Assembly: GCA_938005475.1 (NCBI GenBank)
Contig: CALLNY010000005.1
Location: 5,684-69,683, forward strand
From: an uncultured Bacteroidia bacterium
GTDB lineage: Bacteria; Bacteroidota; Bacteroidia; J057; CALLMJ01
Length of the DNA stretch: 64,000 nt
Reading direction: 5' to 3'
This document shows positions 14,382-53,824 of the stretch, piece by piece (the first letter of the stretch is position 1; the number at the start of each line of letters is the position of its first letter). A program made the position numbers and the translations under genes. The notes under the pieces were generated by a model. The model saw only the letters and a list, made by a program, of their open reading frames with translations. It was not told the DNA's origin and made no database searches.

Positions 14382-14722
14382 ACTAAAAATTTTTCGCAAG
14401 TTAGGAATTTTTTTTATTCATTTTTTATATAACTTGTAATTTCTGATATGCAACCTTATAAACAGAGGGTCTAGTAAAAAAAAACATCTTTAGATTATTT
14501 GGTGATTACCATCATCAAATAATATTGTGGATGTTCTGAAATATATAACCTTAATCTTTCCTTTTAAAGCTAAAAAGCAAGAATCAGAGAAATGTTTACA
14601 ATATTTTGAGGTCTTCCCAAAAGGAAAGAAAATACAACTGTTTATAATAATAAAGGATGCAAATAATAAAATTATCTGGATTAAAGTCCAAAAGGCATTG
14701 TTTCGCAGTGCGTTAGTTTGTT

Positions 14723-14941
14723 TTAATCACTTTTCTTTTTAGATTCTTTTTTTACTGACTGTTCTTCATTTTTCATGTTTTGAACTTCTTTTCGAATTTC
14801 TGTTGCTAAATTTTTCAACTCTTGCATAGCTTTGCGTACTCTAGTACCAGCCGCTTTGTTGTTTTTCTCATAAAACTTTCCAAAATCTTCTTCTACACGG
14901 TCAATAATCTCTTTGATTTGTTGAAAACGATTCATACTCAT
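14723..14941 (-). CDS. Histone H1-like (Hc1 family) small basic protein
   Basis: EDFGKFYEKNNKAAGTRVRKAMQELK signature, Lys-rich tail. Confidence 0.85.
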   Translation of the reverse strand: MSMNRFQQIKEIIDRVEEDFGKFYEKNNKAAGTRVRKAMQELKNLATEIRKEVQNMKNEEQSVKKESKKKSD

Positions 14942-14957
14942 ATGTCCTTTTACGATG

Positions 14958-14988
14958 CAAACTTATAGAATATTTATAATTCCACAAA
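14958..14988 (-). promoter_or_regulatory. Full Bacteroidota promoter (-33 TTTG, 19-nt spacer, -7 TAAGTTTG)
   Basis: On the + strand, CAAACTTA at 14958-14965 and CAAA at 14985-14988, upstream of the Hc1 gene. Confidence 0.75.
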
Positions 14989-15001
14989 TTTTTTTTTAAA
15001 A

Positions 15002-15031
15002 AAATCAATAAAAATTTTTTGTTATTGATTT
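15002..15031 (-). terminator. Inverted repeat, likely terminator of the hisS-ymdB-folK operon
   Basis: AAATCAATAA / TTATTGATTT 10-bp perfect inverted repeat, with a T-run downstream on the minus strand. Confidence 0.6.
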
Positions 15032-15034
15032 GAT

Positions 15035-20516: not shown

Positions 20517-23500
20517 TTGGAATTTCTAAAAAAATTATACGCATTAATTGCTATTGTTTCCTTCTGTTTTGGGGGTATATTATTCTATTATGACTACTCC
20601 CAAACTAATTTGGATTACTTCCGTGATTATGAACAAAATATCCATCAAGAGCTTCAAAAAACTATAAACTCTTGCGAAATAACCTTAAAGGAACTATCGA
20701 TAACACAATCACGAAAACCTTTTTCCTTCAAAGAAAAAAAATTCTTAATTTTGATTTTTAATAACGATTTTTCATTGACCTATTGGTCTGATTACTTTTT
20801 TATCCCCTCCAAAGAAGATATTTTTAAAAAAGACCTCCAAAACCCTTTTCTCTATCAAGAAAAAGATAAATATTTTTATATTATACCATTCAAAACACCA
20901 AAAGAAATTTTACTTGGAATAATTCCGTTAGCATTAAACTACCCTATTAAAAATGAAAGTTTAATCCCTTATTACTTTACTGGAAATTATTCTTCTACTC
21001 TGTTCCATCAAATATCCCAAATCAGCAATACTAAATACCAATACGGAATTAGTTATTATGGTAAAAATAATGAATTTTTGTTAAGTTTAAGAATGCAAGA
21101 TGCTGAACCCTTACGATATTTCTGTAAAATTACTACTTTGATATCATGGTCTATCTGTGGTTTAGCATTTTTATTATTCTGGATAGTATATAAACCAAAT
21201 CCAGAATGGAAAAGTGAGTTTTTATTTACACTTACAATTATAGTTTTTAGGATTTTTCTTATTATTTCTCATTTTCCTTATAACTATGTTCAAATACCTT
21301 TATTCTCCTCGCAAATTTTAGCTATCAATGAATGGAATCCTTCACTAGGAGATTTATTTCTAAATTTTATTTTAATTGCTTTTATTACATACCGATGGTA
21401 TCAATGGTTTCATGGACGCAACTGGATTTTAAAATGGTCTTGGAAATGGATTATCCTTATTCACTTCATTTTAACTATTTTTACTTTCATTTTATTCTTT
21501 ACTTTTTTCTCTCTATTTCGTTTAATCATTGAAAACTCACTAGTCTATTTTGAATTTACTGATATCTTTGAGATAAATGTCTATTCAGGACTTTTAGTAA
21601 TTATTCAATCAATAGCTTTACTCATTTTATTTTTTTTACTAGACGCTATCGTGCTATTTAGCATTGCTCTACTTCATAACATAGAAATCCGCTTTAAGTA
21701 TACAGCGCTTTTTGTATGCTATACTATTATCATATTTTCTTGCTATAATCTTTTACCAATAAAGGATGATTTTTTTGATATATACCATGTATTTACCCTA
21801 ATCTTTTTTATAGCTTTAATTTATCATTTAAAACTACAAAACACAGGGCATAAAAACTATTTTTCTGCTTTGTTAATTATAACGGCTTTAGCTTCTATAA
21901 TGAATTTAGCTTTATCCAAAAGTTTTGAAAAGTCTACGCATGCAAACTACGAAAAAATTACTAGAACCTTTGCAAACCCCCGAGACCTTGTCATGGAATT
22001 TACCTTCAATGAATTTGTAGAAAACTTAAAATCTGATAAATTCATTTTTCATTTTACCAGACCACTACCTAATAACACGGAAAAAATCAAAATCATTATC
22101 AATCGTTTGACTACCCAATACTTAATACCAAATTTTAAAAGCTATGATTTCAAAGTTTTTGTTTATGACCACAACCACAATCGGCTCGATAATCAAAATG
22201 AATTACAACCATTAGAAACAGAAAAACTAGAAAAAACATTATCTCCTTATTTAAAATTTGTTAATAATAAAAGAACTTTCTACGAATATGTATATTTGGG
22301 AAAGTTTTCTTTACTTTCTGAAGAATTAGGAGTAGTCAATTTAGAAATAGAATTTTACCCGAAAGCGAATTTTGGTCAAAAACTTTATCCTCAACTCTTA
22401 CTAGATGAGTCGATAAGACAAAAATTAAGGTTGCCAAAAGGGTATGAAATAGGGCTTTATTACCGAAATATACTAATCAATAAATTAGGAAACGCTGTTT
22501 TTCCTTTATATTTAAATGAAAACATCTTACAAGAAGAACTCAAAAATCAACAAAAATATAGCATATATTATGATAAAATTTCAGATGAAAGGGCTATTAT
22601 TATAAAAGCCCCTGTTCGTACCTTCTTTTCTAAACTTACTTCCTTTACTATCCTTTTTTATATCTTTTCTTTAATTTATACCATTATTAACTTACCTTCT
22701 TTGCTACGACTCGTTTTAAATTTTAATTTCAAAAAGCTATATAAAAGTTTAGCTCTCCGTATCCAAACTTATTTTTTACTTATTAGTTTGCTTCCTATTG
22801 TCATCTTTTCCTTTTTGATTACCCCTTTGTTTACCAATTTTTTTAAAACACAAATTGAATTTGACCTGAAAGAAAACATTAAACAATTCGCCAACCATTT
22901 AGAAAATCATTTATTTCAGAACACCATAACCCCCTCTGAAAACTTTGTTAGTTATGATTTATTAAACTATTATTCTGATTTAATGGATTTAGACATCAAT
23001 GTTTTTGATAAATACGGAAAAATTATCAGTACAACTTTGCCGCGTCTTTTTCAGACCGATATTATCTCTAATTATATGAACCCCTTTGTTTACCATGAAT
23101 TTAAGAATGGTTATCAATCGGAAATTATTCAAAATGAAAGAGTTGGTAACTTGGAATACATTTCTGCTTATGTACCTCTTATTGACAAGAATTATATAAT
23201 CGTAGGTTATTTGAATATTCCTTATTTAGCAAAGCAAGATTTACTGAATACGCAAATCCGCCAATTTTTAGCTTATTTAATCAACCTATACATCGTTTTA
23301 ATTTTAACAACAATTCTGTTTGGTTTATTTACCTCTTCAACAATTACCTTTCCTTTAAAAATATTGAGTGAAAAACTTCAGAAGTTAGCATTGGGAAGCC
23401 CAAACGAACCCATAGAATGGAATAGCAATGATGAAATTGGAGAATTAATTTTAAATTATAATCAGATGGTAAAACAGTTGTCGGAATCTGAACAATTACT

Positions 23501-43626: not shown

Positions 43627-44493
43627 ATGCTATACTTTTCACTGTTAATCTTAATCTTTATAACTTACATTATATTTGCTTTAATTATTGCATTAAAAAT
43701 TATCAAGCCCCAAAATGATAGTCAAAAACCTCCTACCTACAAGCATCCATCAGAATTAAATCTGTTTCAAGAAGAAGTATCTATACCCGTAAACAAGAAT
43801 ATTAAAATTGATGCTTGGTATTTTCCTGCTAATTCAAAACATACTCTTTTATTACTTCATGGTATACATTTAAGTAAACCATATCTTATACCGTTTGCAA
43901 AAGCTTTTCAAGAAATGGGAATAAATGTATTACTACCCGATCATCGCGCTCATGGAGAAAGTGAAGGAAAATGGATTACTTACGGAAAAAATGAAGTTCA
44001 AGACATTATTCAAATAGTAGAGTGGCTTGAAAAAGAAAAGCCTTTTGAAAAATTATCTATGTTCGGTATCTCCTATGGTAGTATTATTGGCTCTCAAGCT
44101 GGTTTAAAAATAAAACACAAATTTAATGCGTTTGTCTTTCAGAGCCCTTATACCAATTTAGATTTAATAATACGATGGACTATCATAAAAAAACTTGGGT
44201 CCTGGGCAAAAATTATGATGCCTGCAGTAAGATTATGGGTTAAACTCTTAGCTGGATTTTGGCTCAATGAAGTGGATGTCATTAGTGCTTGTTCAAAATT
44301 AGATAAACCCACCTTATTTATTGCCGCAGAAAAAGATGAAATTTGCCCTGCCTACGAAACCGTAAAATGTCATGAAGCCTCCGCAAAACCCTCCGATTTA
44401 TGGATTGTTAAAAACGCTAAACATAATAACATTCATAAAATAGCTGGTGAATCTTTTTATTTTAAACGAATTTACGAATTTATTATCCATTAA
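43627..44493 (+). CDS. Alpha/beta hydrolase with N-terminal TM anchor
   Basis: LLHG, DHRAHGESEG, nucleophile GISYG, acid D in EKDEIC, His in AKHN. Confidence 0.88.
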   Translation: MLYFSLLILIFITYIIFALIIALKIIKPQNDSQKPPTYKHPSELNLFQEEVSIPVNKNIKIDAWYFPANSKHTLLLLHGIHLSKPYLIPFAKAFQEMGINVLLPDHRAHGESEGKWITYGKNEVQDIIQIVEWLEKEKPFEKLSMFGISYGSIIGSQAGLKIKHKFNAFVFQSPYTNLDLIIRWTIIKKLGSWAKIMMPAVRLWVKLLAGFWLNEVDVISACSKLDKPTLFIAAEKDEICPAYETVKCHEASAKPSDLWIVKNAKHNNIHKIAGESFYFKRIYEFIIH

Positions 44494-44877
44494 TTATCCA
44501 CATATTTAATAATAAAAAACAGTAAATTGTGAATACAATAAACCTTTTTCATTACAACAAGTAAAAAAATCATCAGCTACCATGAAAATAACCTTATATT
44601 TCCACACTAATACATCCAAAGTTAAATATTTTTGTTAATTAAAATAATCAACATGAATAAAAAAATAAATTTTCACAATTGTGGAAATCTTTTGATAACT
44701 ATCAGTAAAATAAAAATAAAAATTGAGTAGAAATAATAAACTTTGTGGTTTATTTGTTCGTAAAATTATTTACGGGATACCAAGTAGGAGTTTATTAAGA
44801 TACTAACATACCTAATACAACTATAAATATCAGTATTTAAGTAAATATATGAATTTAATTATTATAATAGCATAAAA
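44494..44877. other. oriC: Putative chromosomal replication origin (oriC)
   Basis: Gene-free AT-rich gap with perfect TTATCCACA (44494), near-consensus boxes at 44528, 44598, 44645, 44669, 44680, 44744, a DnaA-trio-like run at 44725-44739, a G/C skew switch, and a parS pair 7 kb away. Confidence 0.75.
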
Positions 44878-45885
44878 ATGGAAATTGTTGACAAAGTGAA
44901 ATGGAAAGAAATTGAAAGAAAAGGTTTTTACGATATAGAGGTAGAACCAACAATAGATTTGTTTTATGAGATTGAAAAATTAAAAAAAGAAAAAAATGCA
45001 ATCATACTTGCCCATTATTATCAAGATGCGGATATACAAGATATTGCTGATTTTGTTGGAGATTCATTAGGTTTAGCCCAGCAGGCAGCTAAAACAGAAG
45101 CCGATATTATTCTGTTTGCAGGCGTACACTTTATGGCTGAAACTGCTAAAATCTTGTCCCCAAAAAAGAAGGTAATATTACCAGACTTAAATGCGGGATG
45201 CTCTTTATCGGATTCTGCTCCTGCTCCACTGTTTGCTGAATTTAAAAAGAAATACCCAGACCATAAAGTCGTTACTTATGTAAATTGTTCTGCCGCTCTT
45301 AAAACAATGTCTGATGTTATTGTTACTTCAAAAAATGCTATACAAATCGTTAATTCTTTTCCACCAGACCAACCTTTAATATTTGCTCCTGATAAAAATC
45401 TAGGTGCTTATATCAATAAAATAACTGGAAGAAACATGGTTTTATGGAATGGTGCTTGTATGGTTCATGAAATTTTTAATCATAAAAAAATTTCAGATTT
45501 ACTGGCTTCGCACCCTGATGCAGAATTGATAGCTCATCCTGAATGTGAAGCTTCTGTACTATCCCTAGCAAAATATATTGGTTCTACTTATGGTTTATTA
45601 GAATACACTAAAAAATCATCAGCGAATAAATTTATTGTTGCAACTGAGCCTGGTATATTACATCAAATGCAAAAAAGTTCACCGCAAAAAATTTTTATTC
45701 CTGCACCTACTAATCATACTTGTGCTTGTAATAATTGCCCTCACATGAAATTAAATACTCTTGAAAAAGTTTATATTTGCTTAAAATATGAAGTCCCAGA
45801 ATTAATTTTGGATGATGAAACCATTCAAAAAGCTCTCATTCCAATTCAAAAAATGCTTGAAATATCTGCTCAACATTCTTTATGA
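44878..45885 (+). CDS. nadA: Quinolinate synthase A
   Basis: ILAHYYQ, GDSLGL, FAGVHFMAETAK, AGCSLSD, YVNCSA, GACMVHE, HPEC, CPHMK. Confidence 0.97.
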   Translation: MEIVDKVKWKEIERKGFYDIEVEPTIDLFYEIEKLKKEKNAIILAHYYQDADIQDIADFVGDSLGLAQQAAKTEADIILFAGVHFMAETAKILSPKKKVILPDLNAGCSLSDSAPAPLFAEFKKKYPDHKVVTYVNCSAALKTMSDVIVTSKNAIQIVNSFPPDQPLIFAPDKNLGAYINKITGRNMVLWNGACMVHEIFNHKKISDLLASHPDAELIAHPECEASVLSLAKYIGSTYGLLEYTKKSSANKFIVATEPGILHQMQKSSPQKIFIPAPTNHTCACNNCPHMKLNTLEKVYICLKYEVPELILDDETIQKALIPIQKMLEISAQHSL

Positions 45886-51032: not shown

Positions 51033-51449
51033 ATGCTAACTATAAGTAATTATTTCCAAGAAATTAATATTCCTTCTGATATAAATGAGTTGTTTAGCGT
51101 TGAAGTTTTTTTAGAGCGAATAAAGGATGATTTAAATTTATCAGAAAATATATTTGCTAATATTATAATTAGTGTAACAGAGGCTGTTAATAATGCAATT
51201 ATTCATGGTAATAAGAATGATATAACTAAGAAGGTTACAATAACTGCTAAGTTGAGTGATGCACATACTTTATCGATTTTTGTTAAAGATAATGGTGATG
51301 GTTTTGATATAAATTCTTTAAAAGATCCTACTTTAATAGAGAATATTTTTTATGAGAGTGGTAGAGGTGTTTTTGTCATGAAGCATTTATCTGATGATAT
51401 GTTGTATCATGATAATGGTTCTTTATTGGAATTAAAATTCAAGTTATGA
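51033..51449 (+). CDS. RsbW-like HATPase (anti-sigma / Ser-Thr kinase fold)
   Basis: SVTEAVNNAIIHGN, VKDNGDGFD, DPT..EN..ESGRGVFVMKHLSD. Confidence 0.88.
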   Translation: MLTISNYFQEINIPSDINELFSVEVFLERIKDDLNLSENIFANIIISVTEAVNNAIIHGNKNDITKKVTITAKLSDAHTLSIFVKDNGDGFDINSLKDPTLIENIFYESGRGVFVMKHLSDDMLYHDNGSLLELKFKL

Positions 51450-51898
51450 TTTCATATAGTTATACCCAAAAGCCTTTTTTTCTAAGCAATAATTTTAAGA
51501 AAATATTTAAAAATGTTGTTAACAAGCTATGTAGTGATTATAATTTTCGTTTGAAAAGGATACATTATCATTTTTGTGATGATGAATACTTATTAAAAAT
51601 GAATTATGAGGTATTAAACCATGATTATTATACTGATATAATCACATTTGATTATACAACTGAAAATAAGTTAGAAGCAGAGATGTTTATTAGTTTAGAT
51701 AGAGTTACGGAAAATTCTGTCATTTATAATCAAACTTTTTTGGATGAATTAGTCAGAGTCATGATACATGGTCTTTTGCATTGCATTGGTTTTGGTGATA
51801 GTACCGATGTAGAAAAAAATGAAATACGCAAATTAGAGGATAATTATTTAAATTTTTTTAATTTGTATAATGTTCCACGTGGAACGTTATATTTATAA
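51446..51898 (+). CDS. ybeY: rRNA maturation endoribonuclease YbeY
   Basis: LNHDYYTDIITF, ISLDRV, RVMIHGLLHCIG. Confidence 0.92.
   Translation: MISYSYTQKPFFLSNNFKKIFKNVVNKLCSDYNFRLKRIHYHFCDDEYLLKMNYEVLNHDYYTDIITFDYTTENKLEAEMFISLDRVTENSVIYNQTFLDELVRVMIHGLLHCIGFGDSTDVEKNEIRKLEDNYLNFFNLYNVPRGTLYL
51871..51886. promoter_or_regulatory. parS: parS centromere-like site 1 (inside ybeY 3' end)
   Basis: TGTTCCACGTGGAACG: perfect 14-bp palindrome GTTCCACGTGGAAC matching the universal parS consensus. Confidence 0.9.
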
Positions 51899-51908
51899 TT
51901 TATTTTTA

Positions 51909-51924
51909 TGTTCCACGTGGAACT
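51909..51924. promoter_or_regulatory. parS: parS centromere-like site 2 (ybeY-mnmG gap)
   Basis: TGTTCCACGTGGAACT, same palindromic core, 38 bp from site 1. Confidence 0.9.
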
Positions 51925-51952: not shown

Positions 51953-53824
51953 ATGCAAGAAATTTATGATGTTATAGTAGTTGGTGCAGGGCATGCGGGT
52001 TGTGAAGCCGCAGCTGCCGCCGCAAATATGGATTGTAAAGTTTTATTGATAACCATGAACATGACCACTATTGCTCAGATGTCTTGTAATCCTGCTATGG
52101 GTGGAGTAGGAAAAGGTCAAATCATTAGAGAAATTGATGCATTAGGTGGCTATTCTGGAATAGTGTCCGATAAAACTGCTCTTCAATTTAGAATGCTTAA
52201 TAAATCCAAAGGTCCAGCTATGTGGAGCCCCAGAACTCAAAATGATAGACTGAAGTTCTCCGAAGAATGGCGATATATACTTGAAAATATTCCTAATTTG
52301 GACTTCTGGCAAGATATGGTACCTAAAATTATTGTAAAAAATAAAACTGCTAAAGGTGTAGTTACCGCTATGGGAAAAGAATTCTATTCAAAAACTGTTA
52401 TTTTAACTAATGGTACCTTCTTAAATGGTATTATTCATATCGGTGATAAACAATTCTCTGGTGGTCGATCAGGAGAAAGAGCCGCAAAAGGGCTTACAGA
52501 ACAATTAAATGAACTTGGATTTGAATCCGGTAGAATGAAAACAGGCACGCCCCCAAGAATTGATGGAAGAACTATCAATTACTCTCAAACCGAAATTCAA
52601 GAAGGTGATAAACCTAAAAAAACATTCTCCTTTAATATTGATTACTATGATTTAGAAATGAAACAATTACCTTGCTATATTACCTATACTAATCCCAAAG
52701 TTCATGAAATCTTAAAAAAAGGATTTAATAAATCTCCCCTTCTTACTGGCAAAATTAAAGGAGTAGGACCAAGATATTGCCCATCTATTGAGGACAAAAT
52801 CGTTCGTTTTGAAGAAAGAGATAGACATCAACTTTTTATTGAACCTGAAGGATGGAAAACCCATGAAATTTACTTGAACGGATTCTCTTCTTCCCTACCC
52901 GAAGAAATACAATATGAAGCCTTAAGACATATACCCGGACTTGAAAACGCTAAAATGTTTAGACCAGGTTATGCTATTGAATATGACTTTTTCCCTCCTT
53001 ATCAATTAGAACTAACCCTAGAAACCAAATTGATTAGAAATTTATTTTTTGCAGGACAAATTAACGGTACCACTGGATATGAAGAAGCCGCTGCACAAGG
53101 TATTATGGCTGGAATAAATGCCGCATTACGTGTAAAAGACTCTGAACCCCTGATTCTTAGAAGAGACCAAGCTTATATCGGTGTACTCATTGACGATCTT
53201 GTTACTAAAGGTACTGATGAACCTTACCGTATGTTTACTTCTCGTGCTGAATATAGAATCCTTTTAAGACAAGATAACGCCGATAGACGCCTTACTGAAA
53301 TTGGTTACAAAATTGGGCTCGCCTCTGAAGAAAGATATCAAAATTTAAAGAAAAAAGAAAAAGAAATCAATGAAATTATTCAACTTTTAGATAGTGTAAT
53401 GGTTGAACCTGAAAGTGCTAATGAAATTTTGGAATTTAAAGGTGAACAACCTATTCAAACTAAACAAAAAGCTTCACACCTTTTACTTAGACCTAATATT
53501 AATATGGAATACCTGCGTTTTATGGACTCCAAACGCATCTCCTATCCCTTAGTTTATTATTCTATTGAAGCAATTAAAGCCGCTGAAATTGAAATAAAAT
53601 ATAGAGGTTATATTGAAAAAGAACTTCAATTAGTAGAAAAAATGAAAAAATTAGAAAATATAACTTTGCCTGAAAATTTGAAATATGAAAATTGTCATGG
53701 CCTTTCTAATGAAGCAAAACAAAAATTATCAAAAGTAAAACCCAAAACTATTGGACAAGCTTCTCGTATTAGCGGTGTTACTCCTGCTGATATATCTGCA
53801 TTGCTAATCTTCATTGGTCGTTAA
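51953..53824 (+). CDS. mnmG: tRNA uridine-5-carboxymethylaminomethyl modification enzyme GidA
   Basis: VVGAGHAGCEAA, MSCNPAMGG, RMLNKSKGPA, KTGTPPRID, GPRYCPSIEDK, GQINGTTGYEEAAAQG. Confidence 0.98.
   Translation: MQEIYDVIVVGAGHAGCEAAAAAANMDCKVLLITMNMTTIAQMSCNPAMGGVGKGQIIREIDALGGYSGIVSDKTALQFRMLNKSKGPAMWSPRTQNDRLKFSEEWRYILENIPNLDFWQDMVPKIIVKNKTAKGVVTAMGKEFYSKTVILTNGTFLNGIIHIGDKQFSGGRSGERAAKGLTEQLNELGFESGRMKTGTPPRIDGRTINYSQTEIQEGDKPKKTFSFNIDYYDLEMKQLPCYITYTNPKVHEILKKGFNKSPLLTGKIKGVGPRYCPSIEDKIVRFEERDRHQLFIEPEGWKTHEIYLNGFSSSLPEEIQYEALRHIPGLENAKMFRPGYAIEYDFFPPYQLELTLETKLIRNLFFAGQINGTTGYEEAAAQGIMAGINAALRVKDSEPLILRRDQAYIGVLIDDLVTKGTDEPYRMFTSRAEYRILLRQDNADRRLTEIGYKIGLASEERYQNLKKKEKEINEIIQLLDSVMVEPESANEILEFKGEQPIQTKQKASHLLLRPNINMEYLRFMDSKRISYPLVYYSIEAIKAAEIEIKYRGYIEKELQLVEKMKKLENITLPENLKYENCHGLSNEAKQKLSKVKPKTIGQASRISGVTPADISALLIFIGR

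Follow-up and report, generated by a model that had tools for sequence, protein, structure and literature searches.

We analyzed a 64,000-nt stretch of DNA (hereafter, the window) that comprises bases 5684-69683 of contig C5 in a draft assembly (G000) of 2.63 Mb, 105 contigs, and 32% G+C. The host genome was placed in the order Chitinophagales from the similarity of its NadA protein, and T9SS sorting domains on neighboring peptidases agree with this placement. A first-pass annotation of the window had proposed that an intergenic gap upstream of nadA is a putative chromosomal origin of replication (oriC), and every one of the motifs that it reported was recovered in the gap at its coordinate. 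The features of the gap and of the two genes that border it are the following:

43627-44493, plus strand: alpha/beta-hydrolase gene to the left of the gap, with its TAA stop directly before the perfect box
44494-44877, no strand: putative oriC gap, 384 bp, 80% A+T, with the hydrolase gene on its left and nadA on its right
44494-44502, plus strand: perfect DnaA box TTATCCACA by sequence match, a probable high-affinity anchor site
44528-44536, minus strand: DnaA-box-like TGTGAATAC (minus strand GTATTCACA), 2 mismatches to TTATCCACA
44598-44606, plus strand: DnaA-box-like ATTTCCACA, 2 mismatches; TTTCCACA is 12-fold enriched in the nadA gaps of relatives
44633-44641, minus strand: TAATTAACA, a copy of the lineage variant box, whose core TGTTAAT is kept in a genome of the same genus (G001)
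44645-44653, plus strand: DnaA-box-like TAATCAACA, 2 mismatches
44669-44688, no strand: convergent box pair ATTTTCACA-AT-TGTGGAAAT, with the G001 counterpart GATTTCACA-AC-TGTGGATAG
44690-44724, no strand: AT-rich block TTTTGATAACTATCAGTAAAATAAAAATAAAAATT, 35 nt, almost identical in G001, a candidate unwinding tract
44744-44752, minus strand: DnaA-box-like TGTGGTTTA (minus strand TAAACCACA), 2 mismatches, heading an alternative leftward module
44792-44808, plus strand: tandem boxes TTATTAAGA (44792-44800) and ATACTAACA (44800-44808), the positional homolog of the box pair of relatives
44809-44835, plus strand: spacer TAC, then the trio-like series CTA ATA CAA CTA TAA ATA TCA GTA (44812-44835; bottom strand 3'-GAT TAT ...-5')
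44836-44877, no strand: AT-rich tract from the trios to the nadA ATG, a probable DNA unwinding element and nadA leader
44878-45885, plus strand: nadA (quinolinate synthase; PF02445, E = 7e-119), the conserved right-hand neighbor of the origin

The description of this gap as the largest gene-free one in the window holds roughly: the interval 14400-15034 is longer, yet it has ORFs of 71-72 aa. That interval measures 635 bp and lacks any ORF of at least 100 aa (its ORFs span only 48-72 aa), and a search of it for tRNAs and Rfam families returned no match.

Only one box in the gap is perfect, and the remaining DnaA-box-like sites and members of the convergent pair each differ from TTATCCACA at two positions. 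Seven boxes with at most two mismatches were counted against 2.04 expected (P = 0.003, 5000 dinucleotide shuffles) and six YCACA cores against 1.0 expected (P = 0.0002, dinucleotide shuffles). By box score, the nadA gap ranked second among the 225 gaps of 250 bp or more that lack an ORF in the whole genome, and none was a clear outlier by this measure; the perfect boxes of the genome, 53 in all, are nowhere clustered. The DnaA-box cluster in the gap exceeds chance, though not overwhelmingly.

In the same-genus genome G001, nadA and the right two thirds of the gap aligned with the window at 72% identity. The conserved blocks include TGTTAAT, a convergent pair TTTCACA-Ay-TGTGGA, the 35-nt AT-rich block, and ACTTTGTGGT, as well as AAACTTTGTGGT..ATTTGT.CG and TTATTAAGATAyTmAC. 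The G001 homolog of the hydrolase gene is on another contig, and a different, divergent gene lies to the left of the G001 nadA gap; a rearrangement breakpoint therefore abuts the gap, and this break in synteny is located at the left edge of the origin (window 44400-44660 versus G001:C147 and G001:C22; L003, L004).

Beyond the genus, similarity at the DNA level was found in only one of the 39 relatives searched, and the comparison was therefore anchored on the NadA protein, using 80 loci that encode NadA relatives from Chitinophagales, Sphingobacteriales, and other Bacteroidia. In 60 of these 80 loci, nadA is preceded by a gap of 350 bp or more, mostly with a divergent gene on the left, and such a large gap carries the majority of the boxes that its locus has at no more than one mismatch (7 of 8 in L021, 4 of 4 in L016, and 6 of 8 in L050). 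In about 50 of the 80 relatives, a gap of 400-760 bp before nadA carries DnaA boxes together with a conserved module, which could be located just ahead of the start of nadA in 49 of the 60 loci with a large gap; it is absent from the small-gap loci (Saprospiraceae, Lewinellaceae, Marinilabiliales, and Polaribacter). The module consists, in order, of tandem boxes (consensus tTTCCACA-tATTcACA), a spacer of 2-5 nt that is usually GC-rich (4 nt in 32 of 49 loci), TAATAGTAATAG, and an AT-rich tract. Its canonical reading is box-CCC-CTA-ATA-GTA-ATA with the bound strand 3'-GAT TAT CAT TAT-5', an orientation that we take to follow from the sequence of oriC in E. coli together with the definition of DnaA-trios in the literature. 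Runs of at least three trios are present in the relatives and in G001. A nadA-linked, dnaA-unlinked origin very probably recurs across Chitinophagales and neighboring groups.

Several 8-mers are enriched in the nadA gaps of the relatives, namely TATTAACA (28-fold), AATTAACA (21-fold), TTATCCAC (17-fold), TATCCACA (15-fold), and TTTCCACA (12-fold). The first-pass suggestion that the repeated TTTCCACA word reflects a lineage-specific box holds only in part: the word is enriched, but the variants that best characterize the lineage are T(T/A)ATTAACA and ACTAACA, found at the box position next to the trios. A MAFFT alignment of 60 upstream regions proved too diffuse, and the nhmmer profile made from it gave zero matches in the genome. 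An element GTGGATAA-N5-9-TTTTAATTTTGCA, situated about 50-60 nt before the box pair, is conserved in L014, L016, L041, L044, L062, and L067. TTTTAATTTTGCA contains TAnnTTTG, which we take to be a Bacteroidota -7 promoter-like motif; placed upstream of the module, it implies that nadA transcription would start upstream and cross the module, as it probably does in the Chitinophagaceae relatives.

The counterpart of this module in the window, at 44792-44835 beside the nadA start, is absent from the first-pass annotation and is a probable unwinding module. Its second box, ATACTAACA, recurs with all nine bases unchanged as the trio-proximal box of the Pedobacter loci L038 and L049 and of L074. Its trio array is degenerate, with only two consecutive canonical trios (CTA ATA, then CAA), and at the same position G001 has five, TTA TTA CTA CTA CTA. 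An ungapped position weight matrix (PWM) of the module, built from the relatives only, gave the window copy 11.7 bits, a score that puts it near the 5th percentile among the relatives and that 74 genomic sites equal or exceed; the chance of a module-like site in the right orientation within ~100 nt of nadA is roughly 0.003. As a unique locator of the module the PWM was rejected, given those 74 sites and spurious top matches.

We also applied the published rule for a basal unwinding system (BUS), which calls for a box with at most two mismatches and a second with at most four, no more than 16 bp from a run of three or more consecutive trios, with the central A on the bound strand (PMC8287927). 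By hand count, TTATTAAGA and ATACTAACA differ from TTATCCACA at three and four positions, both over the BUS limit of two, and from the lineage variant TTATTAACA at one and two. An alternative module on the minus strand, formed by TAAACCACA (44752-44744), AAGT, the series TTA TTA TTT CTA CTC, and then the conserved AT block, does match the formal rule with five NTN trios, a match that T-rich DNA yields trivially, and G001 does not keep the trio run of this module. The nadA gap of G001 contains no formal BUS match, its box ATATTCACG having three mismatches from the E. coli consensus. We set the formal rule aside as a test, as it is too permissive in AT-rich DNA and misses variant boxes. By sequence composition, AT-rich tracts lie beside the boxes at both 44836-44877 and 44690-44735. 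We favor the nadA-proximal module over the leftward one as the candidate melting site because it is the positional homolog of the order-wide element.

The change from C-rich to G-rich coding strands that the first-pass annotation had noted across the gap was confirmed. All genes from 36.1 to 57.7 kb of the window lie on the plus strand, and their GC skew at third codon positions (GC3 skew) is -0.25 to -0.53 to the left of the gap and mostly zero or positive to its right; the switch falls inside a co-oriented block, and gene orientation therefore cannot explain it. The best split of C5 by orientation-corrected GC3 skew is exactly the hydrolase/nadA junction (t = 3.48, Mann-Whitney P = 0.002). 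A cumulative skew minimum had been expected at the gap, and the cumulative G-C minimum of C5, at 43.8-46.4 kb of the window, does span it, but 18 other contigs have stronger GC3 sign flips than C5. The top ten include five stronger flips from negative to positive, all at gene junctions of at most 130 bp. Raw GC skew was rejected as a genome-wide discriminator, with V and inverted-V profiles common and C5 ranking 12th of 46 contigs. The skew of the host's own genome is noisy: it agrees with the oriC call and cannot prove it.

Sharp GC3 flips stronger than that at the origin were observed on C15 (~7.1 kb), C85 (~20.6 kb), C90 (~8.4 kb), C99 (~15.6 kb), C18 (~60.6 kb), and C31 (~81.3 kb). Such flips at tight gene junctions suggest recent inversions, acquired islands, or chimeric contigs.

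The relatives gave clearer profiles, with the skew minimum lying inside the nadA gap or no more than 3 kb from it in four of them (G001, G040, G042, and G043). The cumulative minimum of G001 is at 22,979, within its nadA gap (22,749-23,175). In the complete 6.29-Mb genome of Chitinophaga sp. E66 (G040), the minimum over a contiguous 400 kb is at 5,614,500, against 5,617,380 for nadA, and twenty samples spread around the chromosome gave positive skew over the arc that runs from 5.6 Mb through zero to ~2.1 Mb and chiefly negative skew over the arc 2.5-5.3 Mb, which by this sparse sampling puts the terminus opposite nadA. The G040 dnaA is at 0.109 Mb, about 780 kb from nadA, with positive skew on both sides. 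Chitinophaga sp. YR573 (G042) has a clean V with its minimum at 2,527,858 (nadA at 2,527,000) and a skew of -0.041 to the left and +0.043 to the right; its dnaA, at a distance of 843 kb on that contig, lies in a region of monotonically negative skew with no turn. A 2.9-Mb Bacteroidia MAG (G043) likewise has a clean V, with its minimum at 322,500 and a nadA gap starting at 322,104. The profile of UWPOB_CHIT4 (G041) is flat and ambiguous, with a minimum 105 kb from nadA. The dnaA gene of G040 (G040:C1:108782-109266, CP079103) appears to be broken into two overlapping pieces of frame that a TAG separates, probably a sequencing error.

To the right of the gap, the window contains three further features of relevance:

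51871-51886, no strand: parS site 1, TGTTCCACGTGGAACG, within the ybeY frame (51446-51898) at its 3' end
51909-51924, no strand: parS site 2, TGTTCCACGTGGAACT, upstream of mnmG
51953-53824, plus strand: mnmG/gidA (PF01134, E = 9e-165)

Sites for the partition protein ParB, parS, are normally found in the origin-proximal part of the chromosome. The parS pair that the first-pass annotation had reported 7 kb from the gap is indeed present and unique in the genome: these two sites, both 7 kb right of the gap, are the only ones with at most two mismatches from TGTTCCACGTGGAACA in 2.63 Mb. The ParB gene is on contig C73. Two perfect parS sites also lie 7 kb downstream of the nadA gap in G001, with the same 38-bp spacing as in the window, and in G040-G043 the only parS sites within the sampled 200-400 kb are 3.6-4.5 kb away from the gap, so that in all five relatives examined the distance is 3.6-7 kb. 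Within the 13-kb loci, parS was present in 11 of the 60 with a large gap and in none of the 20 with a small one. The first-pass annotation had also drawn support from mnmG, a gene often near bacterial origins. Its identity and location were confirmed, but its start is 7.1 kb right of the gap with six genes between, so there is no direct gidA-oriC flanking, and it adds little.

The further claim that the origin is not linked to dnaA was borne out, dnaA being on another contig (C22; L172 7047-8516), where its neighbors are fabD and a glycosyltransferase gene, not dnaN. The encoded DnaA is complete, with 489 aa and the domains DnaA_N, Bac_DnaA, and Bac_DnaA_C, and its domain IV motif GGRDHSTVIHA (residues ~448-460) aligns to GGRDHTTVIHA of B. 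subtilis. This reading motif has a Ser where E. coli and B. subtilis have a Thr (DHTTV), a substitution that might bear on how well TTAACA-type boxes are tolerated. Autoregulation is what boxes upstream of dnaA usually signify, and those in the 226-bp gap upstream of the host's dnaA (L172 8517-8742), which has three box-like sites in the form of a tandem TTATTCAC-TTATTCACA plus TAATCCACA / TGTGGATTA, are probably autoregulatory. No dnaN was found in the assembly with Pfam PF00712 and PF02768 or by tblastn with a DnaN of the same genus (386 aa); as the genome is rated 100% complete, the gene is probably in an assembly gap. Another gap, C29:19364-19734 (L171 5365-5735), upstream of a PP2C phosphatase-LysM gene, has the same box score as the nadA gap, with two 1-mismatch and six 2-mismatch boxes that include TTATCCACT, TTTTCCACA, CTATTCACA, and TCATTCACA. 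This second gap may serve as a promoter under DnaA control or as a site of DnaA titration.

We consider it highly likely that the gap at 44494-44877 is the DnaA-dependent chromosomal oriC of this member of the Chitinophagales because of its box cluster, the order-wide nadA module, the skew minima at the nadA gap in four relatives, and the linked, genome-unique parS pair, and the original oriC call is supported to that extent. The following course of initiation is proposed. DnaA, which is canonical-looking and encoded on the other contig, would bind the perfect box with which the gap begins on the left and would also occupy weaker CACA-type and TTAACA-type boxes across about 300 bp, the TTAACA-type sequences being putative DnaA boxes. 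The protein would then oligomerize, presumably rightwards, onto the tandem boxes at 44792-44808, engage the trio repeats of the bottom strand, and melt the AT-rich tract before the nadA start codon, the likely site of opening, where the helicase would be loaded. ParB on the parS pair, 7 kb farther right, would organize segregation of the origin.

A more elaborate reading, which we find rather doubtful, is that in Chitinophagales and Sphingobacteriales the unwinding element sits inside the transcribed nadA leader, that its trio-proximal site has drifted to TTATTAACA or ACTAACA (with box positions 5 and 6 changed), and that in this genus melting has perhaps moved to the leftward module at 44690-44752. 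If true, initiation would use a lineage-specific class of low-affinity boxes and might be tied to the transcription of a gene for NAD synthesis.

Three other accounts of the gap were weighed against its being the origin. The real origin might lie elsewhere, at the 226-bp dnaA gap on C22 or at C29:19364-19734, with the nadA gap as a secondary DnaA-binding locus; the tandem and third box upstream of dnaA, the tie in box score between the C29 and nadA gaps, and the failure of own-genome skew to discriminate between candidate sites all speak for this account, which we nevertheless hold to be improbable. The dnaA region of relatives has no skew turn and no parS (partly on sparse samples) and only 1-2 boxes in 3.4 kb, the boxes before dnaA are readily read as autoregulatory, neither C22 nor C29 carries parS, and the C29 gap, which precedes the PP2C-LysM gene, is outside the 20 strongest skew splits. 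That the gap is instead a nadA promoter or operator only, through which DnaA or another factor regulates NAD synthesis with no origin present, would suit the constant position of the boxes and conserved module directly before nadA, as well as the -7-like TTTTAATTTTGCA upstream of the module in Chitinophagaceae, from which nadA transcription probably crosses the module. A pure operator would, however, leave unexplained both the skew minima at the nadA gap in four genomes and the linked parS, nor does it account for the order of box, spacer, trios, and AT-rich tract, which is typical of unwinding modules. Rfam families, NAD riboswitches included, were sought at the nadA gap without a match, and no known RNA element was found there. 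We regard the operator-only account as very improbable, and the roles of operator and origin are not mutually exclusive.

Chance clustering of box-like words in an AT-rich spacer has in its favor that 2-mismatch boxes are common in DNA of 80% A+T and that 53 perfect boxes are scattered through the genome. Against it stand the shuffles of the gap (P of 0.003 to 0.0002), the retention of the boxes in G001 despite its rearranged left flank, and the order-wide recurrence of the box pattern, and we give this account almost no credence.

As the probable origin of its host, the nadA gap is of practical use. Together, oriC, parS, and nadA form a reliable anchor for ordering and orienting the contigs of this draft and of many Chitinophagales and Sphingobacteriales MAGs, groups in which dnaA is misleading as an origin marker, lying 780-840 kb away in two Chitinophaga genomes. 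The compact fragment upstream of nadA offers a basis for oriC plasmids in a group with few genetic tools, and the 49 aligned modules are a natural data set on the variability of the trio-proximal box and the trios. The current view of bacterial replication initiation is unchanged by a nadA-linked origin. We did not find nadA named as an origin marker for Chitinophagales or Sphingobacteriales in the literature searched, nor any report there of a nadA-linked origin in Bacteroidota, though it may be implicit in DoriC entries, and DoriC predictions probably exist for the complete genomes.

In E. coli, oriC is located between gidA/mnmG and mioC, 42 kb from dnaA, and to our knowledge this species is without parS/ParB. 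The putative origin described here resembles it in that dnaA is unlinked, mnmG is in the neighborhood, a single (predicted) high-affinity box anchors an array of weaker sites, and neighboring transcription probably crosses or approaches the unwinding element; it differs in that mnmG is 7 kb off rather than adjacent and parS/ParB are present. The basal unwinding system of B. subtilis is said to have been set out by Richardson in 2016 and 2019. It comprises boxes 6 and 7 of oriC, a GC cluster, DnaA-trios, and an AT-rich tract, a layout inferred in 85% of predicted origins (Pelliciari 2021, PMC8287927). The relatives' modules share with it the tandem boxes, of which the upstream one is closer to consensus, the ~4-nt spacer, the 5'-NTA trios, and the AT-rich tract, whereas their trio-proximal box is often TTAACA or CTAACA instead of CCACA, the trio run in the window breaks after two repeats, and the origin precedes nadA rather than lying between dnaA and dnaN. 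Within the same phylum but in a different order, Cytophaga hutchinsonii shows that an oriC plasmid test is feasible: a working fragment is credited to Xu et al. 2012 as cited in PMC4009838, and an oriC plasmid was used in PMC7906972. Origins unlinked to dnaA are also found beside hemE (Caulobacter, Rickettsiales) and hemB (Chlamydiae), and in cyanobacteria with dnaN only or with neither gene (PMC4009838). Like the hemE- and hemB-marked origins, the one described here is marked by a lineage-specific neighbor, nadA, instead of dnaA. Origins of this dnaA-unlinked, neighbor-marked type are already well known, and the nadA gap is very probably a genuine, rather typical oriC in a poorly documented position.
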